Positions 6,283 through 62,895 of a DNA stretch of 64,000 nucleotides are shown here, one piece after another. A program made the translations under genes and the position numbers. Every line of letters begins with the position of its first letter. The stretch's first letter is position 1. The stretch covers positions 66,536-130,535 of the forward strand of contig JAJACI010000001.1 in assembly GCA_022601595.1 (NCBI GenBank). Reading direction: 5' to 3'. The notes beneath the pieces were generated by a model. The model worked only from the letters and a program-made list of their open reading frames with translations. It ran no database searches and was not told where the DNA came from. The stretch comes from Chlamydiia bacterium. Lineage in GTDB: Bacteria; Chlamydiota; Chlamydiia; Chlamydiales; 2-12-FULL-49-11.

Positions 6283-6449
6283 TTTAGGAGACTCTGATAA
6301 ACTACACCTTTTAGAATCTTTTCAGATTTTTTGAAATAAATCCGATTTTGGAGTAAGCTGCATCCCCGTAGGGATGGGGCGAAACGAAAAATAGGATGTA
6401 TCAAAAATCTGGAAGATTATAAAACTGTCCGTTTTTCAGAGTCTTCTTA
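6283..6449 (+). mobile_element. MITE-like palindromic element, subfamily A, copy A1
   Basis: Termini TTTAGGAGACTCTGATAAAC ... GTTTTTCAGAGTCTTCTTA and central hairpin CATCCC-CGTA-GGGATG. About 90% identical by eye to 10580-10746. Its right end supplies the stop of 6447..6755. Confidence 0.9.
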
Positions 6450-6755
6450 GGGGTTAGGAACCCATATGCTGTTGATAGCAACATCTTTTATAATCACTTG
6501 AGTATGGTCAGAACTTCCTGCATCAAAAAAATGCACCGTAATTCTATGAGCTACTTCTTTTCTATCGTAGCCACTAAATTCTTTTAAGATGGCATAATTT
6601 CTTTTTCCACTTGTTCGAGAAATAACTACTACATCTTCATGATGTAGGTCGCTGTATTTAACGCGTTTAAATTTAGTGTCTTTGTCTATGACTCCTAAGG
6701 TTTGTAAGAGTTTATTTTGATAGATATCTGCAGGCAATCTTATGGAAGCTGTCAT
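6447..6755 (-). CDS. Hypothetical protein (102 aa)
   Basis: ORF with a TAAGGAGACTTCC-ATG ribosome-binding context. The stop codon lies in the terminus of element A1. No recognisable family. Confidence 0.55.
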   Translation of the reverse strand: MTASIRLPADIYQNKLLQTLGVIDKDTKFKRVKYSDLHHEDVVVISRTSGKRNYAILKEFSGYDRKEVAHRITVHFFDAGSSDHTQVIIKDVAINSIWVPNP

Positions 6756-6756
6756 G

Positions 6757-6812
6757 GAAGTCTCCTTAAGGAACCTCTGAATAACTGCTGGTTTTTAAGG
6801 TAATAACTATAC
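6757..6812. repeat. Back-to-back element termini (A-type end fused to B-type arm fragment)
   Basis: GGAAGTCTCCTTAAGGAACCTCTGAATAACTGCTGGTTT matches an outward A-type end plus the first ~30 bp of the B-type arm (compare 41582-41612 and the reverse complement of 19555-19584). Confidence 0.7.
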
Positions 6813-6842
6813 ATATTCTTTGTATTGTTTTATGCTGTTTGC

Positions 6843-7253
6843 ATGGGATATCAGATAAAAATATATCTTGTGGGAAGGCGACATCCTGCGGTTTTGGCAG
6901 ATGCTATTGGCTCGTATGAAAAGCGGATAAAAGGGCACGTTTCTTTAGAATGGGTGATTCTAAAATCAGATAAGGAATTGGAGGAAAGGCTTGCTAGCAA
7001 AGAGTATTATTGCTTTGATGTGCTTGGCAAAGACTATACAAGCGAGTCTTTTTCAAAATTGCTTACATCGAAGATGCATTGGAATTTTGTAATAGGAGGT
7101 GCCTCAGGGCTTCCAAAAGAGGTGGTAAAAGGTGCGCGCGCTCTTATTAGTTTTTCCAAATTCACTTTTCCTCATGAGATAGTAAGATTATTGGTAGTGG
7201 AGCAAATTTATCGGGCTTTTGAGATAGGAAGAGGATCGCCATACCATAAGTAG
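6843..7253 (+). CDS. rlmH: 23S rRNA (pseudouridine1915-N3)-methyltransferase RlmH
   Basis: SPOUT C-terminus FVIGGASGLPKEV...FSKFTFPHEIVRLLVVEQIYRAFEIGRGSPYHK. ATG at 6843 is preferred over the TTG at 6825. Confidence 0.85.
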   Translation: MGYQIKIYLVGRRHPAVLADAIGSYEKRIKGHVSLEWVILKSDKELEERLASKEYYCFDVLGKDYTSESFSKLLTSKMHWNFVIGGASGLPKEVVKGARALISFSKFTFPHEIVRLLVVEQIYRAFEIGRGSPYHK

Positions 7254-7255
7254 AG

Positions 7256-9124: not shown

Positions 9125-9353
9125 GGGTCATTTTTTTTTTTAGTTAAGCTTTGTTCTATATTAAACTCATTTTTTTGTCTAATGATTATATTACTTGTTT
9201 AATAATCAGGTAGTTTAATTATTGCGTGGATTTTTCTAATCCCTTATCAGACTTTGTCTTAGGGAAATTCTCTTTTTTTAAAAGTTCCTTTTGAGGAAAA
9301 GAAAAAAAATGATACACTTATGGTAATTTCTAAAAACAAGAAAAGGTTCTGAT

Positions 9354-10579: not shown

Positions 10580-10746
10580 TTAAGGAGACTCTGATAAACT
10601 ACACTTTTTAGAATCTTTTCAGATTTTTTGAAATAAATTCTATTTTGGAGAAAGCGGCATCCCTGTAGGGATGGGGCGCCACGAAAAATAGGATTTATAA
10701 GAAATCTGGGAGATTATAAAACTGTCCGTTTTTCAGAGTCTCCTAA
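10580..10746 (+). mobile_element. MITE-like palindromic element, subfamily A, copy A2
   Basis: TTAAGGAGACTCTGATAAACTACAC ... GTTTTTCAGAGTCTCCTAA with central CATCCC-TGTA-GGGATG. Its right end supplies the TAG stop of 10743..12926. Confidence 0.9.
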
Positions 10747-18390: not shown

Positions 18391-18451
18391 TAAAGATGAC
18401 TCTCATAAACTCATGCTTTTAAAAGAGTCACCTTTGGCGACTCTGATAAGC
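18391..18451. repeat. Mini/degenerate B-type element remnant upstream of uvrA
   Basis: TAAAGATGACTCTCATAAACTCATGC...AAAAGAGTCACCTTT forms the GACTCT/AGAGTC inverted pair of the B-type terminus (compare 62831-62895). It is followed by GCGACTCTGATAAGC. Confidence 0.45.
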
Positions 18452-18554: not shown

Positions 18555-19007
18555 ATGGAGAAAACGAACTTAAATGAGCATATTACTTATCAAGACGAAG
18601 AAAGCCAAAATGGCTTTGCTAATGCTGGTGCTTATTTTTTTGTAGATGCCACCTATGAAGATAAAGTCACAAAAGAGATTGCAGGTTTAAAAATGTGTAT
18701 AGCAACGACTCAGACATTGGAGAGACCCAGGAGAAACTTGTGGCACATTATCCAACATATATTTACCTGCACCTCATGTACAGAAGATGTAAGGGTGGTC
18801 TTACCTGTAAGAAGATGGGACAAACAAATCACACACTTAAGTAGTCTATTACAAATATTGAAATTAAGGGTGATTCAGTTGAATCAAACCGCTTCTCAAG
18901 CGCGCGAAAACAAACCCCGGGATTCTTTTGGTAGAGACTATACTCATGTCTATCTTTCTTTTCCATATGATAAAGGGAGAAATAGTTCTGAAACGCTACA
19001 GGGATAA
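18555..19007 (+). CDS. Hypothetical protein, member of local paralogue family (N-module only)
   Basis: AGAGGTG SD. The N-terminal module (ITYQDEESQNGFANAGAYFFVDATYE...NLWHIIQHIFTC) parallels 19773..20213 and 20210..20995. Confidence 0.6.
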   Translation: MEKTNLNEHITYQDEESQNGFANAGAYFFVDATYEDKVTKEIAGLKMCIATTQTLERPRRNLWHIIQHIFTCTSCTEDVRVVLPVRRWDKQITHLSSLLQILKLRVIQLNQTASQARENKPRDSFGRDYTHVYLSFPYDKGRNSSETLQG

Positions 19008-19008
19008 A

Positions 19009-19431
19009 ATGGTTATGCAGTTTATTCATTTAGAAGATCGATATGTAAACTATGAAAATAAAGATGAATTAGAAGTTTACATTCGCCAAGGCTTATCTCT
19101 TGAAATAGATATAAATCAGGTGCGCAAGATTGTGACAAGTTTACAACACATCAAGTTTTCCAGAGCGAGGTTTTCCTCTATAATAAAGAGAAGGCGCCAG
19201 AGTATTAGAGTTCGACAAAGCGTCACTTGTCTAGGCATAAAAAAATCAGAAAGAAATCTGATGAGAAATTTAGATGATAGAATTCATTGTATAGAGACTT
19301 TGATAAAGTCGCTGAATAAAGCAATAGATAAATTACGATGTAGATCCTTAAGGCATCGAACGAGACTAGAGAAAAAAAAGGGAAGCAAGCTAATGATAAC
19401 AAAAGTTTTTGTCACCTTTAGGAACCTCTGA
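19009..19431 (+). CDS. Hypothetical protein, C-module of the local paralogue family (split from 18555..19007, or frameshifted)
   Basis: The ATG at 19009 is 1 nt after the upstream TAA. QFIHLEDRYVNYENKDELEVYI...ITKVFVTFRNL parallels FVHLDNKNALKQEV...VAKVFVQYREKHL in 20210..20995. The stop TGA lies inside the element B1 terminus. Weak SD. Confidence 0.45.
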   Translation: MVMQFIHLEDRYVNYENKDELEVYIRQGLSLEIDINQVRKIVTSLQHIKFSRARFSSIIKRRRQSIRVRQSVTCLGIKKSERNLMRNLDDRIHCIETLIKSLNKAIDKLRCRSLRHRTRLEKKKGSKLMITKVFVTFRNL

Positions 19432-19584
19432 AAAACTCATGCTGAATAATTAGTCCAGATTTCTTATAAATGAGATTTTTCGCGGCGGTCCAGCCCTACA
19501 GGGCTGAGCCTTACTCCAAAAACCAATTTATTCGAGCAATCTGAAAAAATTATTGAAACCAGCAGTTATTCAGAGTCTCCTTTA
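19418..19584 (+). mobile_element. MITE-like palindromic element, subfamily B, copy B1
   Basis: TTAGGAACCTCTGAAAAACTCATGCTGAATAATTAGTCCAG ... ACCAGCAGTTATTCAGAGTCTCCTTTA with central CAGCCC-TACA-GGGCTG. It is the reverse complement of 41582-41747. Confidence 0.9.
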
Positions 19585-23993: not shown

Positions 23994-24043
23994 AAAAGAC
24001 TCTGAAGAAATTCTAAAAAGTGTAGTTTATCAGAGTCTCCTAA
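23994..24043. repeat. Mini A-type element (terminal hairpin only) between convergent pyk and the ankyrin gene
   Basis: AAAAAGACTCTGAAGAAATTCTAAAAAGTGTAGTTTATCAGAGTCTCCTAA. Its last ~40 bp equal the end of A10 (57884-57923). GACTCTGA/TCAGAGTC form a hairpin. Confidence 0.8.
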
Positions 24044-24056
24044 TGTCACTATCGTT

Positions 24057-24902
24057 TTAAAAACTTTGTAAGAAAAGCTTTCTAGCTGTTTCTCCATTTT
24101 TATTTGCATGATCAGGATCGGCTTCTGGAATCTCTAAAAGTGTACTTAGAATTTTTTGACTGTTTACACAAATGTTATATTCTTGGTTATTGATATAACT
24201 AGTACGGGTCTTTTTTACTGCATGAATAAGAGCGGTGTTCCCATCAATATCTGCATGATTGATAAATCCTAAAAAAGAACCAGCTTGCAGTTTGCTAGCC
24301 TCCAAAAGGCTTTCTACAGTATGCAGATCGTGTTCTACGATAGCCTCTATTAGCGCTGTCCTACCATATTTATTAGCGGCATTGATATTTGCTCCTGCTT
24401 GCAAAAGACTTTGTATAATGGCACGTCTCTTTTTCCAGAGAGATCTAGACCTTTGCTGCGCTTGGAGGCTAAACTCTGCACTAGCTCGAGCGTTTTCTAC
24501 AGCTAAAATAAGAAGGGTGTTTTTGTTTTCATCGGTATGATTGATATCAGCACCTCCTCTTATAAGCTCGTCTACGACCTCTAAAGCACCTTCTTTGATT
24601 GCTATTTCAAAAGCCTTACTGGTGTTTTGTTTTACCTTTAAAAGCTCTCGCACTAAATCTGGGCGATTTTGCCTTGCCGCGTATATTAGAGGTGTAGTTT
24701 GCACCTTCCAGTCACAATCACCATCAGTATGAATGTATGGAATAGGGGTAAGTACATCAGCTCCGAGCTGTAAAAGTTCTTGCACCTGCTCAGAATTATT
24801 TTTTTTTATAGCTGAAATAAAAGCGTTATCTAATTTTACATTACCATCAAGCTGACTCATTCCAATTGCTAAGAAGAATAAAAATATGTTTTGTCTTTTC
24901 AT
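24057..24902 (-). CDS. Ankyrin-repeat protein with N-terminal signal-like sequence
   Basis: Repeated ankyrin consensus (GADINHTDENKNTLLILAV, GANINAANKYGRTALIEAI, DIDGNTALIHAV) and a hydrophobic N-terminus MKRQNIFLFFLAIGM. Confidence 0.85.
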   Translation of the reverse strand: MKRQNIFLFFLAIGMSQLDGNVKLDNAFISAIKKNNSEQVQELLQLGADVLTPIPYIHTDGDCDWKVQTTPLIYAARQNRPDLVRELLKVKQNTSKAFEIAIKEGALEVVDELIRGGADINHTDENKNTLLILAVENARASAEFSLQAQQRSRSLWKKRRAIIQSLLQAGANINAANKYGRTALIEAIVEHDLHTVESLLEASKLQAGSFLGFINHADIDGNTALIHAVKKTRTSYINNQEYNICVNSQKILSTLLEIPEADPDHANKNGETARKLFLQSF

Positions 24903-24966
24903 AGGGCTCCAAATTAAAAAAAATGTAAATTAAATATGTAACTTACTACTTATTGTCACGAAATTT

Positions 24967-24995
24967 ATTATATCTTTCCCATTAATTTACTTCAA
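24967..24995 (-). promoter_or_regulatory. Sigma70-type promoter (TTGAAG-17-TATAAT) upstream of the ankyrin gene, copy 1 of a duplicated module
   Basis: The minus strand reads TTGAAG TAAATTAATGGGAAAGA TATAAT. The same module recurs at 26413-26441. Confidence 0.5.
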
Positions 24996-25009
24996 GAAGA
25001 ACTGATCAT

Positions 25010-25068
25010 TTAAGAAGACTCTGAAAAACGGACAGTTTCAGAATCCCATAGATTTTTTATAGTTGATT
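25010..25068. repeat. A-type element arm fragment (inward-facing)
   Basis: TTAAGAAGACTCTGAAAAACGGACAGTTTCAGAATCCCATAGATTTTTTATAG aligns with the first ~55 bp of A10 (57756-57812). Confidence 0.8.
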
Positions 25069-25122
25069 GTATACAAGAAAAATGCTATCCTTTTGTTAAG
25101 AAATAATTAAGTAGAGGAAAGT

Positions 25123-25767
25123 ATGACATATGGCATAGGAAGTTTACCTTCGATTAATCCACTGCATAAAGCGAAGCTAAACTATGCAATGGCCGGAGTG
25201 GGAGCTTCGGTTCTTGCTGTTTTATCACCATTTGAATCTGCAAAGATCATTGGGGCAACTGTTTTAACAGGAGTAGGCTATGGGATCGCAAATGATATGT
25301 TTGCATGTAGAGACTGTATAGAATATTTTACCGTAGGTCATCATTACGACGGGGAAAAATTAAGAGGTCGCCTTTTATTTACATTGGATCCAAATTGGAA
25401 TGCTTTAGCATGGGGAGCCTTCGCAACCTGGCATGTGTGTACTATTGCGGGTATTGTGTTAGCATTTATTTCAAGGACTCCTTTTAGAGGTCTGAAATCT
25501 AAGATTACAGCAAAAACGCTTGCGCCGAAATTGGTAGTGGGTGCTTTATTGTTAATAGTAAAGTCTCATTTTGCCGCAAGAGCTGCGCAAAAAGCTTATG
25601 AAAATAAAGGGAAGAGGTATTTTTTCTGGGGTGTGCCTGAAGAGTTCCAATCTAGATGGAATGCATGTCACGTAAGAAATCTTACTGGATATTTAGGTTT
25701 AGCGGTAGGTGGCGTAGCGCTTTCAGTTGCTATTATTGCATCCAGAGCAGGCCTCTATAAATTATAA
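25123..25767 (+). CDS. Hypothetical polytopic membrane protein (214 aa)
   Basis: GAGGAAA SD and 4-5 hydrophobic segments. The last codons and the stop lie in an element arm. No family recognised. Confidence 0.65.
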   Translation: MTYGIGSLPSINPLHKAKLNYAMAGVGASVLAVLSPFESAKIIGATVLTGVGYGIANDMFACRDCIEYFTVGHHYDGEKLRGRLLFTLDPNWNALAWGAFATWHVCTIAGIVLAFISRTPFRGLKSKITAKTLAPKLVVGALLLIVKSHFAARAAQKAYENKGKRYFFWGVPEEFQSRWNACHVRNLTGYLGLAVGGVALSVAIIASRAGLYKL

Positions 25768-25797
25768 AACTGCTCGTTTTTCAGAGTCTCCTTAATA
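25761..25797. repeat. A-type element arm fragment (right end)
   Basis: ATTATAAAACTGCTCGTTTTTCAGAGTCTCCTTAA. It supplies stops for both convergent genes, 25123..25767 and 25781..26377. Confidence 0.8.
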
Positions 25798-26377
25798 AAC
25801 CGGCTAAAAATGCAGACTTATAACAACCGAAAAGTTGCTTAGCCCTTTCTATTATCCATCGTGCATTCCTCTTATTCCCTTGTGCCCATCTGTTGCTGAT
25901 AAGTCTAAGAGCCTCAACCCGATTTTCTCCAAATGACATCCTTGTAGCTGCGTCAAATGCTCCTTCTAAATCATCTCTTTTTGTCTTTTCTTTTACAACC
26001 AGCAGTAAAATAGTATCTTGAGCATCGGGATCGTTTTTTATTTCAGCAGCAGTTTCTTCGACTAGAGCAAACATACCAACTTGTATTTGAGCTATTGCAA
26101 TAGTCGTTAATTTACTATTAGCATCTAAAATGAAGAGCGGATTAACAAATGTTTTTGCATACTTGAATATCTCACAAGTATTGCAAGGATCAGTAGCGGA
26201 GTAGGCAATAGCAACGGCCACCAAAGTAGCTATTCTTTGATTAACATCATCAAAAGAATCAACTTTCATTAGTATTTGAGTAAAGCCGCATTGATCAGAT
26301 GCTTTCCCTTGATAATCTCCTAGTGGTCTTGTTGTGTTAAGCCTGTCATCTGTTGCGCTATTTGTTATTGATACCAT
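25781..26377 (-). CDS. Hypothetical protein (198 aa)
   Basis: ORF whose C-terminal LLRRL-stop is encoded by TTATTAAGGAGACTCTGA, i.e. the element terminus. No family recognised. Confidence 0.6.
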   Translation of the reverse strand: MVSITNSATDDRLNTTRPLGDYQGKASDQCGFTQILMKVDSFDDVNQRIATLVAVAIAYSATDPCNTCEIFKYAKTFVNPLFILDANSKLTTIAIAQIQVGMFALVEETAAEIKNDPDAQDTILLLVVKEKTKRDDLEGAFDAATRMSFGENRVEALRLISNRWAQGNKRNARWIIERAKQLFGCYKSAFLAGLLRRL

Positions 26378-26412
26378 ATGAAAAAATTCTGTTATTTATT
26401 ATAAAGAACTTT

Positions 26413-26441
26413 ATTATATCTTTCCCGTTTGTTTACTTCAA
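26413..26441 (-). promoter_or_regulatory. Sigma70-type promoter (TTGAAG-17-TATAAT), copy 2 of the duplicated module, upstream of 25781..26377
   Basis: The minus strand reads TTGAAG TAAACAAACGGGAAAGA TATAAT. 33 of 37 bp are identical to 24964-25000. Confidence 0.5.
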
Positions 26442-26466
26442 CAAGAGTTTATCAAAGGTTCCTAAA
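26441..26466. repeat. Degenerate element terminus abutting the rsmE stop
   Basis: AGTTTATCAAAGGTTCCTAAAG resembles GTTTATCAAGGTCTCCTTAG, the right end of A6. The rsmE stop (CTA at 26462-26464) lies inside it. Confidence 0.5.
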
Positions 26467-32566: not shown

Positions 32567-32571
32567 ATTAC

Positions 32572-32731
32572 TATAGTCATTACCGTTTCATATGGCGTCT
32601 TCTTCTGCGAATTTGTGTAGTCTTTTGGTAAATGCATCTTGCTAATATTTATAATATTAGCTCGCTAACCCCCCCAAAACCCCCTCAAAAATTCATTGAA
32701 TAACAAACCATATGAAACGGTAATGACTATA
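32572..32731. mobile_element. MITE-like element, family C (160 bp, perfect 24-bp terminal inverted repeats)
   Basis: TATAGTCATTACCGTTTCATATGG ... CCATATGAAACGGTAATGACTATA with a central hairpin GCTAATATT-TAT-AATATTAGC and C7/C5 runs. Solo termini occur at 37485, 57943 and 63084. Confidence 0.85.
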
Positions 32732-32757
32732 TTAAATATTTTAGGTTAATCTTATGA

Positions 32758-33025
32758 AGTTCTCTTTATGATCCGCCGCCATATACATGGGATGATCTAG
32801 GCGATGACGCAACAAAGTGCCCTGGAGAAGGATTTAAATGGGGGGGGTAGTGGGGCTCCAGAAACTGGAAATGGTAATTGGGTGAAGGGTAGAAGAAAAG
32901 AATTTGACCTTCTTCATCCTGATTTTGATAATCCCCAGCATGACCCGCATTGGGACTATGAGAGCTCAGAATTTCCTGCAGGAGTTAGAATATATCCAGA
33001 TGGATGGGAGCATAAGGTACCATGA
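32758..33025 (+). pseudogene. Start-less, frameshifted fragment resembling the C-terminal toxin domain of a polymorphic toxin
   Basis: Two frames join across the G8 tract (32840-32847) to read SSLYDPPPYTWDDLGDDATKCPGEGFKWGG|SGAPETGNGNWVKGRRKEFDLLHPDFDNPQHDPHWDYESSEFPAGVRIYPDGWEHKVP. There is no start codon in the upstream frame. The tracked ORF 32804..33025 is the downstream part. Confidence 0.5.
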
Positions 33026-44437: not shown

Positions 44438-45769
44438 ATGAATAAAGGAATAATCTCTGAAAAAGAGCTACTTAAGGTGAAAAAATGTTTATCCAAAGAC
44501 CTCTCTTTTAAATTGGCTTGTAATGCGGTAACAAGAGGAGATTTGCAGGATGTTGCCATGAATTGGGATCGTTTTTCTTTGATAGATCATACCTTTTCTC
44601 ATGTAGTAACACCTGAGCTTTCTGCAACAAGTCAGCATCATAGCGGTCGTTGTTGGATATTTTCTGCCTTAAATTTAATCCGCATTCCTTTTGCAAAAAA
44701 GTATAAACTGGAAGATTTTGAGTTCTCACAAAGTTATTTATTTTTCTTTGACAAGCTTGAAAGGACCAATTATTTCTTAGAAAATATATTAAGCACCTCA
44801 GACATGCCTGTAGATGGACGTCTTGTTTCTCATTTACTTAAAGATCCTGTTCAAGATGGCGGACAGTGGGATATGTTTGTTTCTCTTATCCAAAAATATG
44901 GTATTGTGCCAAAATCTATTTTCCCCGATAGCAAGGCCTCTTTAAATTCTCGATCGATCAACTATATTCTCAGCTATAAGTTAAGAGAGTGGGCAAAAAC
45001 CCTACGTGATTTAAAAGAAAAAAAAGCCTCTGATAAAACGCTTTCTGAAAAAAAAGATTTAATGATGAATGAAGCATTCAGGATAATCTCCATCCATATT
45101 GGGCATCCTCCTGAAAAATTTGATTGGGAGTATGTGGATAAAGATAAAAAATTTCACGCCTGCAGGAACCTTACACCAAAGACATTTTTCAAAAAGCATG
45201 TGAATTTCCCGCTTGATGAAATGGTTAGCCTTGTAAATAGCCCTAGAAAATCTACTCCTTATGGAAAGTCTTATACAGTGAAGTATTTGGGAAATGTAAT
45301 AGAGGGGCAAATAGTTCGTTATTTAAATGTAGAAACACATGTGATGAAAAAAGCTGCTATTGCGGCTATTAAAGATAACTCCCCTGTTTGGATAGGGTGT
45401 GATGTTGGTAAGTTTTTTCATAGAGGCCTCGGTGTAATGGATGCAGAACTGTACGAATACAAGCATTTATATGATACAGAATTTGATTTGGATAAAGGAG
45501 GAAGGCTTGATTATGGGGAGGCGCAGATAGCTCATGCAATGCTTTTTACGGGGGTGAATCTTGTAAATGGCAAGCCTACAAAGTGGCGCGTTGAAAATAG
45601 TTGGGGTGAAAAAAATGGTGACAAAGGATATTATATTATGACCGACAAATGGTTTGATGAATTCATGTTTTTGATCACTGTTCATAAAAAGTACCTTACC
45701 AAGAAGCTTCAGGATGAATATAAGGCTAAACCTCAGGTTGTTCCACCGTGGGATCCTTTGGGAGATTAG
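44438..45769 (+). CDS. pepC: Aminopeptidase C / bleomycin hydrolase family cysteine peptidase (C1B), copy 1
   Basis: The QHHSGRCWIFSALN catalytic Cys motif, HAMLFTGV (His) and ENSWG. Confidence 0.85.
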   Translation: MNKGIISEKELLKVKKCLSKDLSFKLACNAVTRGDLQDVAMNWDRFSLIDHTFSHVVTPELSATSQHHSGRCWIFSALNLIRIPFAKKYKLEDFEFSQSYLFFFDKLERTNYFLENILSTSDMPVDGRLVSHLLKDPVQDGGQWDMFVSLIQKYGIVPKSIFPDSKASLNSRSINYILSYKLREWAKTLRDLKEKKASDKTLSEKKDLMMNEAFRIISIHIGHPPEKFDWEYVDKDKKFHACRNLTPKTFFKKHVNFPLDEMVSLVNSPRKSTPYGKSYTVKYLGNVIEGQIVRYLNVETHVMKKAAIAAIKDNSPVWIGCDVGKFFHRGLGVMDAELYEYKHLYDTEFDLDKGGRLDYGEAQIAHAMLFTGVNLVNGKPTKWRVENSWGEKNGDKGYYIMTDKWFDEFMFLITVHKKYLTKKLQDEYKAKPQVVPPWDPLGD

Positions 45770-45854
45770 GTGTGTTTTAAGAAGAAAAAACTTTATCGTT
45801 AACGAAAAAAATAGTAAGGTAAAGGATGGTTATTTAATACAAAAGGATAGATAT

Positions 45855-47195
45855 ATGAGCAAAGGGAAAATTTCTGAGAAAGAGTTGGTTAAGATGAAAA
45901 ACAGTTTGGTAAAGGATCCTTCCTTTCGTTTAGCGCGTAATGCGGTAACAAGAGGAGATTTGCAAGATGTTGCTATGAATTGGGATCGTTTTGCTTTGCT
46001 TGATCATACCTTTTCAGAGATGGTATCACCAGAGCTTGCTGCAACCAGTCAGCATCAAAGTGGACGTTGTTGGCTTTTTGCTGCGATGAATTTAATGCGT
46101 ATCCCTTTTGCACGTAAGTACAAGTTAGAAAAGTTTGAGTTCTCACAAAGTTATTTATTTTTCTTTGACAAGTTGGAGAAAGCCAATTACTTTTTGGAGA
46201 ATATATTAAAAACAACGGATGAAGCATTTGATGGTCGTCTAGTATCTCATCTGCTCACCGATCCCCTTTCAGATGGCGGACAGTGGGATATGCTTGTCAA
46301 TATAATCAATAAATATGGTGTAGTGCCAAAATCCATTTTCCCAGATAGTAAAGCATCTTTAAACTCTCGTTCCATCAACTACATCTTAACTTTAAAATTA
46401 AGAGAATGGGCAAAGACTCTACGTGATTTAAAGGAGAAAAAAGCCTCTGATAAAAAGCTTTCGGAAACCAAAGATCTGATGATGAACGAGGCGTATAGAA
46501 TTATGGTCACCCATTTTGGGCAGCCTCCTGAAAAGTTTGATTGGGAATATGTGGATAAAAATAAAAAATTCCATGCACATAGAAATTTAACACCAAAGAC
46601 ATTTTTCAAAAAGCATGTGAATTTCCCGCTTGATGAGATGGTCTGCCTGGTCGATAGCCCAAGGAAATCCACCCCTTATAACAAAGCTTATACCGTGAAG
46701 TATCTTGGTAATGTTGTTGAGGGACAGGCTGTTCGTTATTTAAATGTAAAAATTGATGTGATGAAAAAGGCTGCTATTGCATCTATTAAAGATAACACCC
46801 CTGTGTGGTTTGGTTGTGATGTGGGCAAGTTTTTCCATAGAGATATTGGGGTGATGGATACAGAATTTTATGAATATGAGGATTTATATAACACCCGTTT
46901 TGAGCTGGATAAAGCTGGAAGGATGAACTTTGGTGAAAGTCAGATGACTCATGCGATGCTTTTTACTGGGGTGAACCTTGTAAACGGAAAGCCTACAAGG
47001 TGGCGTGTGGAAAATAGCTGGGGGAAAAAGAGCGGTGATAAGGGATATTTTATCATGACAGACAAATGGTTTGATGAGTTTATGTTTGAAATCGCTATCC
47101 ATAAAAAGTACCTTACTAAAAAGATTTGTGATGAATATAAAACAAAACCACAAGCGCTAGAACCTTGGGATCCTTTAGGCGCATTAGCTTATTGA
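45855..47195 (+). CDS. pepC: Aminopeptidase C / bleomycin hydrolase family cysteine peptidase (C1B), copy 2
   Basis: Colinear paralogue of copy 1 (QHQSGRCWLFAAMN, HAMLFTGV, ENSWG). Homology begins at MSKGKISEKEL (45855), so the tracked upstream extension from 45714 is rejected. Confidence 0.85.
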   Translation: MSKGKISEKELVKMKNSLVKDPSFRLARNAVTRGDLQDVAMNWDRFALLDHTFSEMVSPELAATSQHQSGRCWLFAAMNLMRIPFARKYKLEKFEFSQSYLFFFDKLEKANYFLENILKTTDEAFDGRLVSHLLTDPLSDGGQWDMLVNIINKYGVVPKSIFPDSKASLNSRSINYILTLKLREWAKTLRDLKEKKASDKKLSETKDLMMNEAYRIMVTHFGQPPEKFDWEYVDKNKKFHAHRNLTPKTFFKKHVNFPLDEMVCLVDSPRKSTPYNKAYTVKYLGNVVEGQAVRYLNVKIDVMKKAAIASIKDNTPVWFGCDVGKFFHRDIGVMDTEFYEYEDLYNTRFELDKAGRMNFGESQMTHAMLFTGVNLVNGKPTRWRVENSWGKKSGDKGYFIMTDKWFDEFMFEIAIHKKYLTKKICDEYKTKPQALEPWDPLGALAY

Positions 47196-49250: not shown

Positions 49251-49601
49251 TCAATATATATTTACTCGCCAAATGAAGCGGTTTGTGATAAGCCCTGTTA
49301 CCCATACAGAAAAGGCCCCCCAAAAAAGGGCTGAGAAGGAATGGAAATGTACGCCGTAGGAAAGTTCTGATGCCAGGAAAAAGGTGAAAAAGTTAATAAC
49401 AAGGGTGAACAGGCCAAGGGTTAGAATGGTAATAGGCAGGGTTAATAATGTTAAGACAGGTCTGACCACCGCATTTATCGCACTTAATATTATTGCAAAA
49501 AAGAACGCATCGGTCCCATTATGAATCTCAAAACCAGGGATATAGCGCCCAATGAATAAGACTACAGCAAAGGTGATAAAAAACCGAAAAAGTAAAAACA
49601 T
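49251..49601 (-). CDS. Phage holin family 4 / DUF360 (YvlD-like) membrane protein
   Basis: Four TM segments. AIILSAINAVVRPVLTLLTLPITILTLGLFTLVINFF matches the YvlD-type core. Confidence 0.75.
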   Translation of the reverse strand: MFLLFRFFITFAVVLFIGRYIPGFEIHNGTDAFFFAIILSAINAVVRPVLTLLTLPITILTLGLFTLVINFFTFFLASELSYGVHFHSFSALFWGAFSVWVTGLITNRFIWRVNIY

Positions 49602-51038: not shown

Positions 51039-51063
51039 GGTTTGTTTATCAGAGTCTTCTTAA
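51039..51063. repeat. A-type element right-end fragment
   Basis: GGTTTGTTTATCAGAGTCTTCTTAA. Confidence 0.6.
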
Positions 51064-52393: not shown

Positions 52394-53431
52394 ATGAATA
52401 AAGTTGATCAATTAGTAGGACGCTCTGTAGGTATTAATATTGAAGAAAAGAAGCCTGCTAAAAAACATAGCACTACACTCATGCATTTAATCGGGGAAAT
52501 TCGGAATAAAGAGAATTCTACCGCAAGAAAGGTTGGTGAGAGTGTCGTTTTAGTTCTTTATTTTTTGAGCGGTCTTTTTTTAGCAGAAGCCCTTGGCTGT
52601 CTAGGAAATTGGATGTGGAGTGAGATCAAAAGAGGTCTCTCAAACCATAAAAGAACAGCTGAATTAAAAAATATCCTTATAAATGATGTCAAAACTAAAG
52701 CTACAAAAGCAATCCGCCCTTTAGCTTACGATATTCTTAACAAGCTTATGAGCAGACCTAAAGTGGTAGAGACCATTGATTATGTTACATCCCTTGGTGT
52801 GGCCACAGGAACAGGTGCCCTGAAAGACGTGCTCAATGGAAGGGTGTTTTGTGACGCTAAAAAGGTAGCTATTGATTCGGTTATGGGCAACTTAGGAGAG
52901 ACTGGAAATACAGTTTTAAAAGACTTCAACACCGTGTTTGGAATAGCAGAGAAACCCGCGGCTACAACGCCTCCGGCTGCAGATAAAGCGAAGCCTGAAG
53001 CAAAGAATCCGTCTGTTGAAAAAGTAAAAAAAATCATTTTTGATGAGCTTGAGACACTTGTTATGCAACCATTTTATACGATACTTGGTAACGCTTCTGA
53101 TGCGGTTAAGGCGGCTTTTTTGGGAACATCGGAAAAAGAGGAGATCGCTCCTATAAAACCTACCGCTACTGCTAAAGTTAAGACTCCAGAGGAAGACAAC
53201 ACTGCTGCATTAGAGTCTCAAGGTGCGCAAATGGTAAGTTGGTTGAAAGCGCTTGTTAAAGAAACACCTGGAAGTGATGCTCCAAAACAAGGTCCTGTTG
53301 TTACTAAAGTAGTACCGACACCCACAACTGGAGCAATACCTGAAATAAATGCAATAAAGGACAAATTTCTTGCAAATTTAAAGAAACAGGCTCCATGGCA
53401 TGTGCGATATTTTTTAGGGCAACTCTATTAA
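52394..53431 (+). CDS. Hypothetical protein (345 aa) with one hydrophobic hairpin-like segment and a Pro/Ala/Lys-rich region
   Basis: GGAGAGG SD, with the start 2 nt after the upstream stop. VVLVLYFLSGLFLAEALGCLGNWMW. The stop TAA is the first TAA of element A9. Confidence 0.65.
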   Translation: MNKVDQLVGRSVGINIEEKKPAKKHSTTLMHLIGEIRNKENSTARKVGESVVLVLYFLSGLFLAEALGCLGNWMWSEIKRGLSNHKRTAELKNILINDVKTKATKAIRPLAYDILNKLMSRPKVVETIDYVTSLGVATGTGALKDVLNGRVFCDAKKVAIDSVMGNLGETGNTVLKDFNTVFGIAEKPAATTPPAADKAKPEAKNPSVEKVKKIIFDELETLVMQPFYTILGNASDAVKAAFLGTSEKEEIAPIKPTATAKVKTPEEDNTAALESQGAQMVSWLKALVKETPGSDAPKQGPVVTKVVPTPTTGAIPEINAIKDKFLANLKKQAPWHVRYFLGQLY

Positions 53432-53595
53432 GGAGACTCTGATAAACGGACAGTTTTATAATCTCCCAGATTTCTTATCAATCCTATTTTTCGTGGCGCC
53501 CCATCCCTACAGGGATGCCGCTTACTCCAAAATAAAATTCATTTCAAAAAATCTGAAAAGATTCTAAAAGGTGTAGTTTATCAGAGTCTCCTTAA
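53428..53595 (-). mobile_element. MITE-like palindromic element, subfamily A, copy A9
   Basis: TTAAGGAGACTCTGATAAACGGACAG ... GTGTAGTTTATCAGAGTCTCCTTAA with centre CATCCC-TACA-GGGATG. Confidence 0.9.
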
Positions 53596-53871
53596 GGAAT
53601 TACACACTTTGAACTATGGTCCGTAAAAGAATTTGATCTTAAAATTAGTAGAATGAACCCTAAAAGGTTGAAAAGAGAAGTAAAGCGTGAAATGCAGAAG
53701 ATCAAAGATACCAGCAAACCATCTACTCATGCTCAAGATTATATGCGTGAAGAACTAGTGCAAAAAAAATTAGAAAGAAAATCTTTTACAAAAAAAATGA
53801 AAGACACGCGGAAAAAAGAGCAATTTGATCTAAAACAAGCTAAGAGAAAAGAAAAGCACCGCGGTCATTAG
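53596..53871 (+). pseudogene. 5'-truncated YjdF/DUF2992-like gene (C-terminal Lys-rich half only)
   Basis: The frame is open from immediately after the in-frame TAA of the A9 terminus. ...NPKRLKREVKRE...KQAKRKEKHRGH matches my recollection of the DUF2992 C-terminus. The tracked ORF 53653..53871 starts at an internal Met. Confidence 0.4.
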
Positions 53872-53953
53872 ATAATTTATTTTATTTCTTTTTTAGTAAA
53901 AAAAAGCAAAGAAAGGATTCTAAAGAAGTAATACTGAGACAGGGTCCCATAAA

Positions 53954-56140: not shown

Positions 56141-57589
56141 CTAATTCTTTTTGTAAAGGAGACTCTTTAGGGAGATTTTTTTATGGAGAAAGTCTTCAAA
56201 AGCTTGATCCTCTTTTTTTTCAAGTGTAAGATCGCTATAAAAGGCATAATTTTTTTTTACAAGATGAGAAATGGATTTGTTAAAGCTGTATTTTTCGCGC
56301 AATATCATACGTAGTTTCTCCATCCCTACATAAAGGGAGGGGTCATCAAGCAGAGAGGCAATCTTTTCCGCACGACTTGCAGGTGTATCTTTTGTCTTAT
56401 AAAGGAGTATAAGATACTCACAAAGGGAAAAGTAGGGGAGCAGCTCTTTATAAGCGACATGGTAGAGATCTATGAGAAAAGGCACGGCATGATCAAGAGC
56501 GTCATAAAAGAACAAAGAATTTGTAGAAAGACATTCGGTAAATGATCCATCACCTCTTAGCCCTACAAAAGGGTTGGATGAATTCATCCAATAGATAAAC
56601 TCCTTTTGATCGATATTTTTTGTGTGTTTTATAGTAAGTGTTTTCCCTTCTTTTTGAATGCTAAGAGAGCTGGTATTTGGATCATCTAGAATAAAAATTT
56701 TTTTTATGCCGTAGGAAAGAAAGTCTATTTCATTAAAAAGGGGGAGAATGGTTGCTAGATTTGGCACAACAATGGTCAGGTTTTCTAAATCACTTTTCCT
56801 GTGCATTAGAATAGATAGAAAATAAGTGATTATCCCCTTTTTAGTAACAAGATAGGCAAAGTAAGTATTGAGATCTCTTTTTTGTGGAGGGACCTGATCT
56901 AGGATAATGATCCCTTTTTCAAGTGCATATAACCCCATCGAACGTTCTTTTGTAGCTGGATGATAATCTGGTGTGTCAATAAATCCATACTGACCAATTC
57001 GGGAGATAATTGGAGGGTCCTGATTCTCTTTTTCTATCATCGATTTTAACGATAAAAAATCATAGTAGGCGGCAGGGATTTCAAGAATAGAAAATGCCGA
57101 TCTCATAAGATCTTGTATGGCCTTAGAAAATTTAGGAGGCTCTGGATGAGAATATTTTACGATATGATGAGCAAGATGAGACCTTAACTTATTAGGTAGA
57201 GGAGACTTTTTATCTATGACGGAGATAAGTTCGATGTTTAGCTCAGGAATTTCTTTTGCAAGAATATCTGCTATATGAATTTGCATAGAAAGATCGCCCA
57301 GTCCAAAAGGAATGACCCATGTAAAAAGGATGAGTTTTTTGTCCCCTTTAATGGGGGTATCTCTATACTTATAAAGGAGGGCTTTGTCCAAAATTTGGTA
57401 AATAATATCTTTAACTGAGGAGAATTCTTCTTTTTCTGGAAGAGCTCGCGGAATCTTAATTTCTGCGTAAGGCGGCAGCTGCAGGGTCTGCAAGTCAAGC
57501 AGTGCAGTTACCTCGGCTAAAATTTCATCGGAGAGAGGTCTCTTTTTCATTTTTTTATTGTAAGGAATTTTCCCTTTTGCTACAATCAT
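56141..57589 (-). CDS. Hypothetical protein (482 aa), possible GT-B glycosyltransferase with EarP-like motifs
   Basis: N-terminal LILFTWVIPFGLGDLSMQIHIADIL and C-terminal NPFVGLRGDGSFTECLSTNSLFFYD resemble, from memory, the EarP FC.V.DN.GD.GV and RGEDSFVRA...PF.W motifs. Unverified. Confidence 0.3.
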   Translation of the reverse strand: MIVAKGKIPYNKKMKKRPLSDEILAEVTALLDLQTLQLPPYAEIKIPRALPEKEEFSSVKDIIYQILDKALLYKYRDTPIKGDKKLILFTWVIPFGLGDLSMQIHIADILAKEIPELNIELISVIDKKSPLPNKLRSHLAHHIVKYSHPEPPKFSKAIQDLMRSAFSILEIPAAYYDFLSLKSMIEKENQDPPIISRIGQYGFIDTPDYHPATKERSMGLYALEKGIIILDQVPPQKRDLNTYFAYLVTKKGIITYFLSILMHRKSDLENLTIVVPNLATILPLFNEIDFLSYGIKKIFILDDPNTSSLSIQKEGKTLTIKHTKNIDQKEFIYWMNSSNPFVGLRGDGSFTECLSTNSLFFYDALDHAVPFLIDLYHVAYKELLPYFSLCEYLILLYKTKDTPASRAEKIASLLDDPSLYVGMEKLRMILREKYSFNKSISHLVKKNYAFYSDLTLEKKEDQAFEDFLHKKISLKSLLYKKN

Positions 57590-57755: not shown

Positions 57756-57923
57756 TTAAGGAGACTCTGAAAAACGGACAGTTTTATAATTTTCCAGATT
57801 TCTTATAAATCCTATTTTTCATGGCGCCCCATCCCGAGGGGGATGCAGCTTACTCCAAAATCGGATTTATTTCAAAAAATCTGAAGAAATTCTAAAAAGT
57901 GTAGTTTATCAGAGTCTCCTTAA
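57756..57923 (-). mobile_element. MITE-like palindromic element, subfamily A, copy A10
   Basis: TTAAGGAGACTCTGAAAAACGGACAG ... GTGTAGTTTATCAGAGTCTCCTTAA with centre CATCCC-GAGGG-GGATG. It appears to be inserted into a family-C element. Confidence 0.9.
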
Positions 57924-57966
57924 AAATTCATTGAACAGTACGCCATATGAAACGCTAACGACTATA
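57924..57966. repeat. Right-hand ~43 bp of a family-C element
   Basis: AAAATTCATTGAACAGTACGCCATATGAAACGCTAACGACTATAG aligns with 32689-32731. Confidence 0.75.
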
Positions 57967-58034
57967 GTTTTTATTTGGATGTATCTTAAATAATCAGGTT
58001 TATTGTACAATATATAAAGAAACAGGAGTTGATT

Positions 58035-59934: not shown

Positions 59935-61252
59935 AATATATGGAGAGTCTTATAGGGATTTATTAAGACTTGCAATCCCCTCCATGCTTACCTTTATCTC
60001 AACAACCTTAATGATGTTTTTTGATCGATTGTTTTTATCCAACTACTCATTAGAAGCGCTGGGTGCTGCTGTAAATGCTGGGGCTATTGCCTGGGGAGTG
60101 GTATTTGCATTTCAGGTTTTTACAGAGATGAGTCAGGTGGTTATTGCCCAATATATTGGGGCAGGAAAAGAGGATAAGCTCTCCTCTCCCGTGTGGCAGA
60201 TGTTATGGCTTGTCGCTTTTTCTTGGATCATTTTTATTCCCGTGGCAATTTATGGAGCAAAGATTTTTTTTGAGCCAGGTTCTTTGCAGTCTCAATACTT
60301 TATTTGGTTTGTCTCTTTTGGCACAGCATTTGGCTTAGTTGGGGCGGGATCGGCCTATTTTATAGGTAGGGGAGAGACTCGTATTGTTACGATTACTGCT
60401 GTAATAGGAAATGTGGTAAATCTTGTATTAGATTATTTTATGATATTTGGAGTCAAAGGGTTATTTGCTCCTATGGGAGTGAAGGGCGCTGCAATTGCTA
60501 CTGGTATTGGTATAGTGGTGCAAGGCATTTTATTGTTGATCTTATTTTTACGACAGACCAATTATAAGGTGTTTTCATGGGATCCAGAGGTGTTAAAGCC
60601 TTGCATTCGAGTGGGTTTTTCCCCAAGTCTATCAAGAAGCGCAGAAATTATTGGCTGGGGATTATTTTTTAGCATGATGGCAAAAGCAGGAAGCGTGCAC
60701 CTAATTGTTACAAGTGTTTGCCATAGTCTATTGCCAATTTTTGCCTGTGTGGGTTTTGGGCTTCAAAAGGCTATTTCCACTATAACAGGTAATTGGGTTG
60801 GCGCTGGGAAAATAGAGCAGATACCAAAACTGGTGCAAAAAGCTACGGTCGTTCTTGGTCTCTACATGGCGGCAGTTGCTCTGATGATGTATATATTTCC
60901 AGATCTTCTCTTGCAGCTATTTCAAAATAAGGAATTAGATGTCGAGCTAAGCAGTCTTATTCGCATAGGATTTTTACTTTCTTTAGGCTATCTATTCTTT
61001 GGAGGACTTCGAAATATTGCCACAGGAGTTCTTTCTGCAGTTGGTGATTCATGGTTCTTAATGACCTTTGGGATTTTAACTATTTGGATGTTTTTATTAA
61101 TTCCTGTTTACTATTTTATTGTTTTCTCAGGAAAGTCGGTAACTTTTGCGCAAACTTTACTATTAGCCTATGGGGTGATGGGCTCATTGGTATATTTAGC
61201 AAGGTATAGTTCAGGCAGATGGGCTGCAAACGCCTCTTTAATAAAAGAATAG
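59921..61252 (+). CDS. MATE-family efflux transporter
   Basis: 12-TM protein whose N-terminus LLRLAIPSMLTFISTTLMMFFDRLFLS is typical of MATE. Overlaps the GntR gene by 14 nt. Confidence 0.75.
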   Translation: MEQSKIYGESYRDLLRLAIPSMLTFISTTLMMFFDRLFLSNYSLEALGAAVNAGAIAWGVVFAFQVFTEMSQVVIAQYIGAGKEDKLSSPVWQMLWLVAFSWIIFIPVAIYGAKIFFEPGSLQSQYFIWFVSFGTAFGLVGAGSAYFIGRGETRIVTITAVIGNVVNLVLDYFMIFGVKGLFAPMGVKGAAIATGIGIVVQGILLLILFLRQTNYKVFSWDPEVLKPCIRVGFSPSLSRSAEIIGWGLFFSMMAKAGSVHLIVTSVCHSLLPIFACVGFGLQKAISTITGNWVGAGKIEQIPKLVQKATVVLGLYMAAVALMMYIFPDLLLQLFQNKELDVELSSLIRIGFLLSLGYLFFGGLRNIATGVLSAVGDSWFLMTFGILTIWMFLLIPVYYFIVFSGKSVTFAQTLLLAYGVMGSLVYLARYSSGRWAANASLIKE

Positions 61253-61309
61253 TTGTACAGAAATATTGACTTTTTGCTAAGGTTGTGTTTTTTTTATCAA
61301 GGGTCGAGT

Positions 61310-62383
61310 ATGAAGATTTTTAAAAAGCTATTTATTTTAGCAACGGTTTTTATGTTATGCACAGAAAGTGCGCTCATTGCATCAGAAAAAATACAACCAA
61401 ATTCTTTTATTGAGTATGACTTGTATAGCGCTATAAGTGAGGGCAATCTGGATAAAATGGGTGCTTTGATTGAGACGTATGCTTTTAGCCCAAAGGTTTT
61501 AGGGGAATTTTATCTTTTACTACTTTCTTCAGAAAATATTTCTAAGCAGGATATATTAGAAAATATATCCGTGCTAAAAAATGAAGGGGCTGAGTTATTT
61601 GCAGAAACAGAAATGACATTAAATTGGGATCATTTTATAGATAATTTTGATGCGGATATGTATGAAGCGCTCCAAGGAATAAAGGGCTATGAGAAATTTA
61701 TTCACTTTGTATATTTGAATGTTAAGAGTTTTGTGGAGTACGAGCAAAAGAATCCATGTGTGAAATCAATAGATTTCTTAAATGAATCACTGGAGTTTTT
61801 TAAAAAAATAGATGCATTTCTTATTCGAAAAAAAATATCTTTTTCTAAAAAAGAAATGGGTCCATTTATCGAAGAAAACTATCATTTGTGGCGTGAAGCC
61901 CCCTCATTTCTAGTATCAGATATTTTAGAGCATGTGTCGCCTAAAATAAATGCCGAGCTATTTTATAGATATATGTGCTGCACTCCCGGGTTTATGCTCC
62001 ATTTATTAGAAACCAATGAATGTCAAAAATATTGCATGCTTATTGCTCCTTTTTTTCTAGGAGAGTTTCCTAAACATGTAACTGCAAAGGCATTGTTACT
62101 TTGGATAATTGAAGATATGGGGAAAGCAGATGATATGTCGGGGTACTATTTACAAGAAGAGAGTGCACGCCAGGTGGGGAGGGTAGGAGATTACTATTTT
62201 ATTTTGCAATCTGCTGGGATGAAAGCATATTTAGATAAAGAACTTGAAACTCTTGATGATAATGTAAAACAGAAGGTTTTAGAAATATTTCGTTTAGGTC
62301 CTAAAGAATGGATAGATAATGAAATGCAAGAGCTTTTGCATGACATAGAAGAGGCAAATAAATTAACAAAGGATATGAAATGA
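61310..62383 (+). CDS. Hypothetical secreted protein (357 aa)
   Basis: The signal peptide MKIFKKLFILATVFMLCTESALIAS begins at the internal Met, position 61310. No family recognised. Confidence 0.6.
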   Translation: MKIFKKLFILATVFMLCTESALIASEKIQPNSFIEYDLYSAISEGNLDKMGALIETYAFSPKVLGEFYLLLLSSENISKQDILENISVLKNEGAELFAETEMTLNWDHFIDNFDADMYEALQGIKGYEKFIHFVYLNVKSFVEYEQKNPCVKSIDFLNESLEFFKKIDAFLIRKKISFSKKEMGPFIEENYHLWREAPSFLVSDILEHVSPKINAELFYRYMCCTPGFMLHLLETNECQKYCMLIAPFFLGEFPKHVTAKALLLWIIEDMGKADDMSGYYLQEESARQVGRVGDYYFILQSAGMKAYLDKELETLDDNVKQKVLEIFRLGPKEWIDNEMQELLHDIEEANKLTKDMK

Positions 62384-62808
62384 AAATATTTAGAAACTTA
62401 TTATTAGGATTTATTGTAGGATTTACCGGTTTGACAAGCAGTGTATTTGCTGGAGATCAAAACTTAGAGATAGAAAATGAAGAATATAGAACCGAAGGAA
62501 ATACACAATTAGATGAGGCTCTGCAGCAGTTTTTTAGCACAGATAGCTTTGATCGTATATTGTTAACGCTTCACGATGAAAATTTAGAAACTCATAAGAT
62601 TGGCGTTCTATTTGATCCCGTGAATGGATACTTTGATTTACAAGGAATGAAGATGAACAATCCTGTCTTAATTGTAACTCCGTATGGTACACCAAAAGCA
62701 TTAATAGATTTAGTTAAAAGAAAAATACCCGCAGATCTCTCTTGCTCTGTATTTTGTTGTGGGAGCTTTAACGGAACTCCAGTTTTAGAATACTTCGGTT
62801 TCGAATAG
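62380..62808 (+). CDS. Hypothetical secreted protein (142 aa)
   Basis: ATGA overlap with the upstream gene. Signal peptide MKIFRNLLLGFIVGFTGLTSSVFA. Confidence 0.6.
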   Translation: MKIFRNLLLGFIVGFTGLTSSVFAGDQNLEIENEEYRTEGNTQLDEALQQFFSTDSFDRILLTLHDENLETHKIGVLFDPVNGYFDLQGMKMNNPVLIVTPYGTPKALIDLVKRKIPADLSCSVFCCGSFNGTPVLEYFGFE

Positions 62809-62817
62809 ATTAAATGT

Positions 62818-62895
62818 CTACAGAGTCTCCTAAAGAAGACACTGAAAAACTCATGCGGAATAATTAGTCCAGCAGTTATGCAGAGTCTCCTAAAG
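62818..62895. repeat. Solo outward terminus plus internally deleted B-type mini element
   Basis: CAGAGTCTCCTAAAG occurs twice, 60 bp apart (62821 and 62881). Between them, AGAAGACACTGAAAAACTCATGCGGAATAATTAGTCCAG|CAGTTATG joins the two B-arm ends without the centre. Confidence 0.75.

Follow-up and report, generated by a model that had tools for sequence, protein, structure and literature searches.

Here, we describe a family of short palindromic repeats within a 64,000-nucleotide stretch of contig JAJACI010000001.1, from Chlamydiia bacterium (GCA_022601595.1). This whole stretch is referred to as the window, and all positions are given within it. The repeat family is real and, very probably, its members are MITEs (miniature transposable elements with inverted repeats) derived from insertion sequences of the IS5 family (IS5 group). 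We place the repeats in this family because both their termini, and a 4-bp target-site duplication, match. Elements of this kind are well known; the family itself was previously undescribed in chlamydiae.

The original prediction, made from the bare sequence, was of a dense repeat family with eight full-length copies. Both points are borne out. A 13-nucleotide core, AAGGAGACTCTGA, occurs 25 times in the window if up to two mismatches are allowed. Only 1.95 occurrences are expected, and the largest number found after shuffling was 7. All eight full-length copies could be aligned end to end, and an nhmmer profile built from them finds each one again (E-values between 1e-33 and 1e-54). Each copy has a body of ~160 bp with a 4-bp flank on either side. 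At least eight truncated copies, mini copies or solo ends are also present. Together, copies and remnants occupy 1,693 bp, or 2.6% of the window, and the predicted density, close to one copy or remnant every 4 kb, is correct.

The full-length copies form two subfamilies, and are named below by their first position. As originally noted, and as nhmmer reports, three subfamily A copies are on the forward strand (6283-6449, with its body at 6287-6446, E = 2e-51; 10580-10746, E = 1e-53; 33469-33635, E = 6e-48). The other three are on the reverse strand (36421-36588, E = 3e-53; 53428-53595, E = 1e-53; 57756-57923, E = 1e-52). Pairwise identity within subfamily A is 84-96%, so the initial estimate of roughly 90% or more was slightly generous for copy 33469. 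The two subfamily B copies point in opposing directions in the nhmmer results, with 19418-19584 on the reverse strand (E = 3e-38) and 41582-41747 on the forward strand (E = 7e-40). Subfamily B had been thought to share only termini, length and architecture with subfamily A. Instead, the two are 67-73% identical along their whole length and have internal blocks in common.

Every body runs from GGAG to CTCC, is non-coding, and is an imperfect palindrome throughout. As anticipated, the whole element folds into one long hairpin. RNA folding gave free energies of -71 and -79 kcal/mol (z-scores of -8.8 and -11.5), and DNA folding gave -39 kcal/mol (z-score of -9.9). No Rfam family matches the elements at the gathering threshold. 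In a scan of the complete window, only tRNA and signal recognition particle (SRP) RNA reach that threshold, and no element copy does. Below it, the segment 36419-36588 matches the plant microRNA precursor MIR7996, with 40.7 bits against the 119 required. Such matches are found because the element forms a long hairpin, and do not reflect homology.

The identity of the family lies in its termini. Both ends of the body carry GGAGACTCTGAWWAAC, which is identical, at 16 of 16 positions, to the left end of complete IS5-family elements found in other genomes. The terminus was initially written as TTAAGGAGACTCTGA. This contains a genuine IS5-type end, starting with GGAGACTCTGA, while the TTAA part is the 4-bp target duplication and lies outside the repeat. 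We scanned genomes across species, other than the home genome, with the 18-nucleotide end. Among the matches listed, a Gaiellales contig (L041) holds an insertion sequence that is complete. This element encodes a 319-amino-acid transposase with Pfam domains DUF772 and DDE_Tnp_1. The element reads CTAA/GGAGACTCTGAAAAAC ... GGAACGTCTGAACAAG/CTAG, and hence has flanks CTAA and CTAG. We also scanned metagenomes for the left end followed, after 125-155 nucleotides, by a sequence encoding MExxxPW. This retrieved 11 loci, of which 7 are complete elements (L062-L065, L067, L069 and L071). These are 1158-1178 bp long and encode transposases of 319-323 amino acids. On the left they begin with GGAGACTCTGA(TT/AA)AAC, and on the right they finish with GGACACTCTGAATAAG, or GGAACGTCTGAATAAG in L071. 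All have YTAR flanks, such as TTAG/TTAG and CTAG/CTAG. The closest source-named database proteins of these transposases, taking the best 120, are all labelled IS5 family transposase. Annotated IS5-family elements of plasmids have the same layout, TTAA/GGCAATGCTGATCAAG...CTTGTTCAGCATTGCC/TTAA, and the chlamydial element end fits their GG..A..CTGA..AA. pattern.

The same 18-nucleotide end is also found, among the matches listed, in short palindromic or inverted-repeat elements of Nitrosomonas, Korobacteraceae and Thiotrichaceae. These are separate MITE families of ~110 bp in Nitrosomonas (L015-L052), ~119 bp in Korobacteraceae (L007, L011, L029 and L033), and ~261 bp in Thiotrichaceae M17 (L001, L031, L032, L034 and L039). 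All begin with the same IS5-type left end of 16-18 nucleotides, and all three taxa show 4-bp YTAR-like duplications. The chlamydial family resembles these MITEs, and IS5-family elements generally, in its GGAGACTCTGAWWAAC left end and 4-bp YTAR-like duplication. It differs from IS5-family elements in having no transposase gene, two left-like ends, and a fully palindromic body. Its interior is unrelated to those of the Nitrosomonas, Korobacteraceae and Thiotrichaceae MITEs and, unlike the Nitrosomonas MITEs, it does not retain distinct left and right ends. It seems that one IS5 lineage, with a single end sequence, has repeatedly spawned unrelated MITEs in different phyla. The Thiomargarita MITEs in the literature are of unrelated types.

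The sequences flanking each copy are the second line of evidence. The TTAA at element ends is a 4-bp target-site duplication; copy 57756, for example, has TTAA on both sides. This tetranucleotide, found at most flanks, contains TA and is palindromic. Hence, for 3 of the 8 full-length copies in the window, the flanks are ambiguous, and could equally suit a MITE of another superfamily that favours TA, either IS630/Tc1-mariner, with its TA duplication, or a piggyBac-like TTAA integrator. We regard such an origin as very unlikely. Where flanks depart from TTAA, they co-vary as 4-mers across single copies. In the window, copy 19418 has the matching, non-consensus, flanks TTTA/TTTA and a mini copy at 62833 has TAAA/TAAA. 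In the sister MITEs of Nitrosomonas, Korobacteraceae and Thiotrichaceae, flanks are CTAA/CTAA, TTAA/TTAA and TAAA/TAAA. Furthermore, the 16-nucleotide end is identical to the ends of IS5 elements encoding DUF772 and DDE_Tnp_1 domains, and neither an IS630 nor a piggyBac type of protein turned up among the window ORFs (open reading frames) tested. An IS630/Tc1-mariner-type MITE, including a Correia-like one, was rejected since the flanks match as 4-mers that extend beyond TA.

Comparison with related bacteria indicates that the elements have moved. A relative with 94% protein and ~85% DNA identity (L055) has an empty site at the gene for NAD kinase, reading CCATTAA/ACATGCGGGACGCTGTCCC. In the window, the filled site reads CCATTAA[GGAG...CTCC TTAA]AAGAAGATTATGGGACGCTGTCCC. 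Copy 36421 thus entered a TTAA that holds the NAD kinase stop codon, and duplicated it. The copy now lies between that stop codon and a terminator hairpin (36394-36412). The host lineage is distant from Parachlamydiaceae, to which its NAD kinase is ~41% identical. In a second relative (L056), a gene has a subfamily A copy 45 bp past its stop codon; the window ortholog of that gene has a subfamily B copy on the stop codon itself. These are independent insertions. No copies are present in 11.5-15 kb of syntenic DNA from L055 (11.5 kb), L057 (15 kb) and L058. The corresponding part of the window has two full copies and one solo end. Note that L055 may have a decayed subfamily B copy at the 41582 site, although similarity is ~60% over just 40 nucleotides. 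In another contig, L082, a copy splits a DUF2992 pseudogene and has TTAA on both sides. At least two other chlamydial lineages hold copies, namely L056 and another sponge chlamydial bin (L006). The L006 copy is a near-identical subfamily A element and was among the listed matches to the 18-nucleotide end. Finally, 16.8 kb flanking the window in the same genome contains two more full copies and one partial copy. The original prediction would have been undermined by copies sitting at the same orthologous positions in relatives, or by a lack of copies outside the window. The data are otherwise: the L055 site is empty, the L056 site is different, and copies continue beyond the window. We conclude that these are dispersed elements with presence and absence differences, and that their interpretation as mobile, non-autonomous, MITE-like elements is supported. 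A match to a known annotated family would also have counted against the prediction. No annotated family matched, though the parent family, IS5, can now be named.

Several observations weigh against an IS5-derived MITE family. First, both element ends resemble the left end and the body is palindromic, whereas the Nitrosomonas relatives are simple internal deletions. Second, the flanks of 4 of the 8 full copies do not match (6283, 10580, 33469 and 41582). Copy 6283, for instance, is flanked by TTTA and TTAG, and copy 10580 by TTAA and TAAT. Decay, recombination or misassembly is needed to explain these. Third, searches of ~81 kb of the home genome, using tblastn with an IS5 transposase, detected neither an autonomous partner nor a transposase fragment. 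Fourth, a profile protein search gave no chlamydial name among the top 120 proteins related to the matching transposases. Fifth, all the full-length elements that were retrieved belong to GC-rich soil bacteria or to other bacteria (GC contents between 0.47 and 0.64). Sixth, the two full copies just outside the window are in divergent promoter regions. As to a partner, the family may be an inactive orphan, or may be moved by some unseen source.

Other searches gave a similar picture. The tblastn search found nothing in any chlamydial sequence compared, so that no cognate full-length IS5 element is present in the chlamydial sequence examined. None of the 11 metagenome loci is AT-rich or chlamydial. 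A Pfam check of the window ORFs tested found no transposase domain. The initial claim that the window lacks a transposase-like ORF hence holds among the ORFs tested by tblastn and Pfam. Since no transposase was found in ~81 kb of the home genome, mobilisation in trans is something we infer, from the anatomy of the elements, as is current activity. In the mechanism we favour, an IS5-family DDE transposase, supplied in trans by a full-length element, would bind both ends. The target for insertion would be a tetranucleotide resembling YTAR, most often TTAA but in other cases CTAA, TTAG, TTTA or TAAA, and would be duplicated on both sides of the element. Insertions at, or near, stop codons would survive in a genome that is 88% coding, leading copies to accumulate at the 3' ends of genes and in 3' untranslated regions (3' UTRs). 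Copies would later decay to mini copies and solo ends, and could also act as substrates for recombination or assembly confusion. The autonomous partner would be AT-rich, ~1.2 kb in length, with GGAGACTCTGAWAAAC ends and an ORF encoding DUF772 and DDE_Tnp_1.

Copies and remnants in the window are indeed concentrated at stop codons. Thus, 11 of 16 touch the stop codon of an ORF, compared with 23 of 193 non-genic YTAR sites (~12%; p = 2e-7). Two frames of the element end hold stop codons: a TAA within the duplication and a TGA at body positions 9-11. At copies 36421, 53428 and 41582, the TAA of the duplication serves as the stop; for copy 41582, one flank (CTAA on the reverse strand) is the stop of ORF 41745-42206, on that strand. 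The right flank of copy 6283 similarly holds the stop codon of the reverse-strand ORF 6447-6755. Other ORFs read RRL, FRNL or RRP from the element end and terminate at its TGA. For example, ORF 18928-19431 runs 4 codons into the end of copy 19418 before stopping at this TGA. Because both target and end contain stop codons, a protein is unchanged, or gains only ~4 residues, when an element inserts at its stop codon or shortly ahead of it. The bias is most simply read as a result of the TAA or TAG within YTAR and of tolerance for insertions at the 3' ends of genes. We infer selection as its cause. IS5 reportedly prefers particular DNA structures, according to work from the Saier laboratory, and this could contribute to the positions seen. 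The bias is not absolute. One copy (57756) is 85 bp downstream of the gene for tRNA-Asn, and one splits the DUF2992 pseudogene. In an all-against-all comparison of window ORFs, only the neighbours 40758-41342 and 41745-42206 were linked (34% identity). Hence, the elements do not travel with a gene family, and an association of this type was rejected.

The two arms of the element have not changed independently. Changes on both sides were found in 11 of 54 arm pairs (shuffles gave 3.4 +/- 1.5, and slid controls 1-4), and 94% of cells in the arm comparison are paired. Co-variation extends to the terminal repeats: copy 33469 has the same 2-nucleotide change at both ends (GGAGACCTTGA), and in copy 41582 the two ends also share a change (GGAGAGTCTGA). 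In addition, identity to window copies is 84-86% for the subfamily A copy in L056 and 85-92% for the copy in L006. Third-position identity between the L056 lineage and the window is only 52%, with silent sites nearly saturated. These observations could mean that the element is a selected structural module, a hairpin in DNA or a 3' UTR that benefits the host as a stabiliser of RNA, a target for RNase, a terminator or a regulatory small RNA, its transposon ancestry being incidental. Enrichment at stop codons also fits, as does copy 36421, which should be co-transcribed from its place between a stop and a terminator. Nevertheless, we consider this unlikely. Copies occur in either orientation relative to the preceding gene, and orthologous sites in close relatives lack them. 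Insertions are found in a pseudogene and in divergent promoter regions, and many copies have decayed. In three copies checked, there is no T tract of terminator type, and neither a terminator nor a promoter is predicted inside; terminator or promoter function was rejected on this basis. Both types of conservation also have other explanations. Template switching in quasi-palindromes transfers a change between the two arms (Ripley, Lovett), so that arm co-variation can result from this process or from hairpin selection. Similarity between lineages suggests either that a mobile element has spread horizontally among chlamydiae or that the body as a whole is under constraint. The classification as IS5-derived MITEs is altered by neither co-variation nor conservation across lineages.

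The co-varying arms, the identity of 84-92% despite saturated silent sites, and the strong enrichment at stop codons would also fit a functional reading. In its combined form, which we think unlikely, an orphan IS5-type MITE spreads horizontally among chlamydial lineages of the same host, and its whole body, beyond the ends, is kept because it acts as a hairpin module of 3' UTRs, placed between stop codon and terminator. Such a module, if it exists, would give an obligate intracellular bacterium a ready-made and movable means of regulating mRNA fate.

The window is from a metagenome-assembled genome of an uncultured chlamydia associated with sponges, so the reliability of the sequence must also be weighed. 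Its proteins match exactly those recorded for 'MAG: Chlamydiia bacterium'. The contigs derive from the sponge metagenomes of Dharamshi et al. 2022 (PMC9666466), where transposases and mobile elements are unmentioned. Two copies are joined to different flanks in other assemblies made from the same population. The contig L079 (20125-20400) runs from copy 10580 into another gene, and has a matching TTAA right flank in place of TAAT. At copy 53428, the alternative join is in L082 (3340-4040). Here, the DUF2992 gene (3366-3951) is split at TTAA by the copy and also has an in-frame stop, making it a pseudogene. Positions 53596-53870 of the window hold the C-terminal part of DUF2992, and the N-terminal part is missing from the window arrangement. 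Instead, copy 53428 is joined, on its left, to ORF 52394-53431, which was not on record in an exact look-up, and the switch in sequence falls within the first 22 nucleotides of the element. The window contig hence appears chimeric or recombinant at copies 10580 and 53428, and the mismatched flanks of other copies may have arisen in the same way. Several contigs of other assemblies also end inside copies. Taken to the extreme, assembly or binning might have collapsed or pasted a single repeat, so that neither density nor positions are real. Of all the explanations weighed here, we give this the least credence. Independent assemblies from different samples (L072 and L074) have the same three copies in context, with 99.6-100% identity. 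The copies differ from each other by 4-16%, each has flanks of its own, and a relative has an empty site. We conclude that the joins at copies are unreliable and that the copies themselves are reliable.

The original prediction likened the family to Rickettsia RPEs, Neisseria Correia elements and ERIC or BOX repeats. The likeness stands as a concept, but not as membership, since the ends and the duplication are of IS5 type. Correia elements have a TA duplication and unrelated 26-bp ends. They share no sequence similarity with the chlamydial family, which has a 4-bp duplication and IS5-type ends. They are alike in their size (~100-200 bp), terminal inverted repeats, co-transcription with neighbours, variant decay and high density, with >120 copies of Correia elements per genome (PMC10969869). 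RPEs, and the QMITEs of Coxiella, are palindromic repeats of similar size in obligate intracellular bacteria, and ORFs read into some copies, as they do here by up to ~4 codons. RPEs occupy in-frame positions within genes and are not known to have defined terminal repeats or duplications. Neither RPEs nor QMITEs have IS5-type ends, and QMITE2 has GTAG REP-like features (PMC10969869). REP/BIME and ERIC/BOX repeats are also intergenic, hairpin-forming, and often downstream of genes. However, ERIC and BOX have different sequences, and REPs are 20-40 bp repeats with GTAG/CGTC heads, associated with RAYT enzymes (PMC3733652). A REP/RAYT repeat was rejected given the ~160-bp body, GGAG ends and 4-bp duplications. 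No DNA similar to the chlamydial element was found in the plasmid collection searched. In the literature, we found no paper with the end sequence in a bacterial context, nor any that describes MITEs of chlamydiae; these bacteria also go unmentioned in a 2024 review of MITEs in prokaryotes.

These findings do not overturn current understanding, and are of moderate interest for chlamydial genome biology, assembly and annotation. At 2.6% of the sequence, a density comparable to that of Correia elements in Neisseria, the family adds usefully to what is known of genome plasticity in environmental chlamydiae. Copies break and mis-join metagenome assemblies, with two joins in the window suspect. They also alter predicted protein C-termini by a few residues, and could serve as strain markers.

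The remnants predicted by eye fared unevenly. Those at 23994, 25010, 25761, 6757 and 62818 are supported. A 50-bp, internally deleted, mini copy on the reverse strand (23994-24043; E = 7e-10), with end joined to end, directly follows the pyruvate kinase stop codon. The truncated copy at 25010-25068, also on the reverse strand, comprises 59 nucleotides of one subfamily A arm (E = 8e-8). On the forward strand, a 37-nucleotide end (25761-25797; E = 6e-5) lies between two convergent ORFs, one of which (25781-26377, reverse strand) terminates ...LRRL* within it. The remnant at 6757-6812 has a 9-nucleotide end (GAAGTCTCC), TTAA, and ~30 nucleotides of a B-type end (E = 4e-3); its AAGGAG is 6 nucleotides upstream of the ATG of the reverse-strand ORF 6447-6755. 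The composite at 62818-62895 (E = 0.025) begins 10 nucleotides past the stop of ORF 62380-62808, with a solo end (CAGAGTCTCC) followed by the 60-bp B-type mini copy mentioned above. Three others are weak, albeit recognizable by eye: a 26-nucleotide B-like solo end at the rsmE stop codon (26441-26466; E = 0.08), a 25-nucleotide solo end with TTAAGAAGACTCTGATAAACAAACC on the reverse strand (51039-51063; E = 0.64), and a degenerate composite of end-like pieces (18391-18451; E = 0.75). The possible remnants at 9243-9263 and 56159-56175 are not significant alone. A further solo end, absent from the earlier list, is at 40745-40768 (TTAAGGAGACTAACTGAAAAAG on the reverse strand), between the stop codons of def and ORF 40758-41342.

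Some elements are in regions that vary between relatives. Copy 33469 is inside a lineage-specific 1.26-kb block (32526-33837), between aroC and cydA, that is missing in L056 and L057. The block is edged by 49-nucleotide direct repeats (32526-32574 and 33789-33837; 88% identity) and contains, besides the copy, two small overlapping ORFs without a Pfam match (~32804-33025 and 33022-33483). Similarly, ~2.5 kb between pyruvate kinase and rsmE (24044-26461) is missing in L057, where the two genes abut. Four element remnants are found in this region along with three ORFs, of which one has ankyrin repeats, and it looks like an insertion-tolerant accessory spot. The two copies of a 62-nucleotide repeat (24947-25008 and 26393-26454; 81% identity) each abut an element remnant. 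By eye, these repeats look like a near-consensus promoter on the reverse strand (TTGAAG, 17 nucleotides, TATAAT), upstream of the reverse-strand ORFs 24057-24902 (ankyrin-repeat) and 25781-26377. Two other intergenic repeat pairs are near copies and unrelated to the element, one of 45 nucleotides (36328-36372 and 53881-53925; 76%) and one of 59 nucleotides (32683-32741 and 57918-57976; 80%).

Some other features of the window were also noted. A small reverse-strand ORF (49251-49601) matches Pfam Phage_holin_4_2 (E = 2e-23) and is beside a redoxin gene; there are no further genes of phage type close by. The paralogous small ORFs noted above, 40758-41342 and 41745-42206, are both on the reverse strand, and have the common motif ...ILGYIP...FSG..R; the former is absent from L055. 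Tandem Peptidase_C1_2 (aminopeptidase C-like) paralogs, at 44438-45769 and 45714-47195, are 79% identical, and the pair is also present in L055. Lastly, within a reverse-strand ORF for a hypothetical protein (42270-43379), a 21-bp tandem repeat (42994-43161) encodes PKAEPQL heptads. The number of units varies between assemblies or strains: the window and L073 have 5, L072 has 3 and L075 has 2.

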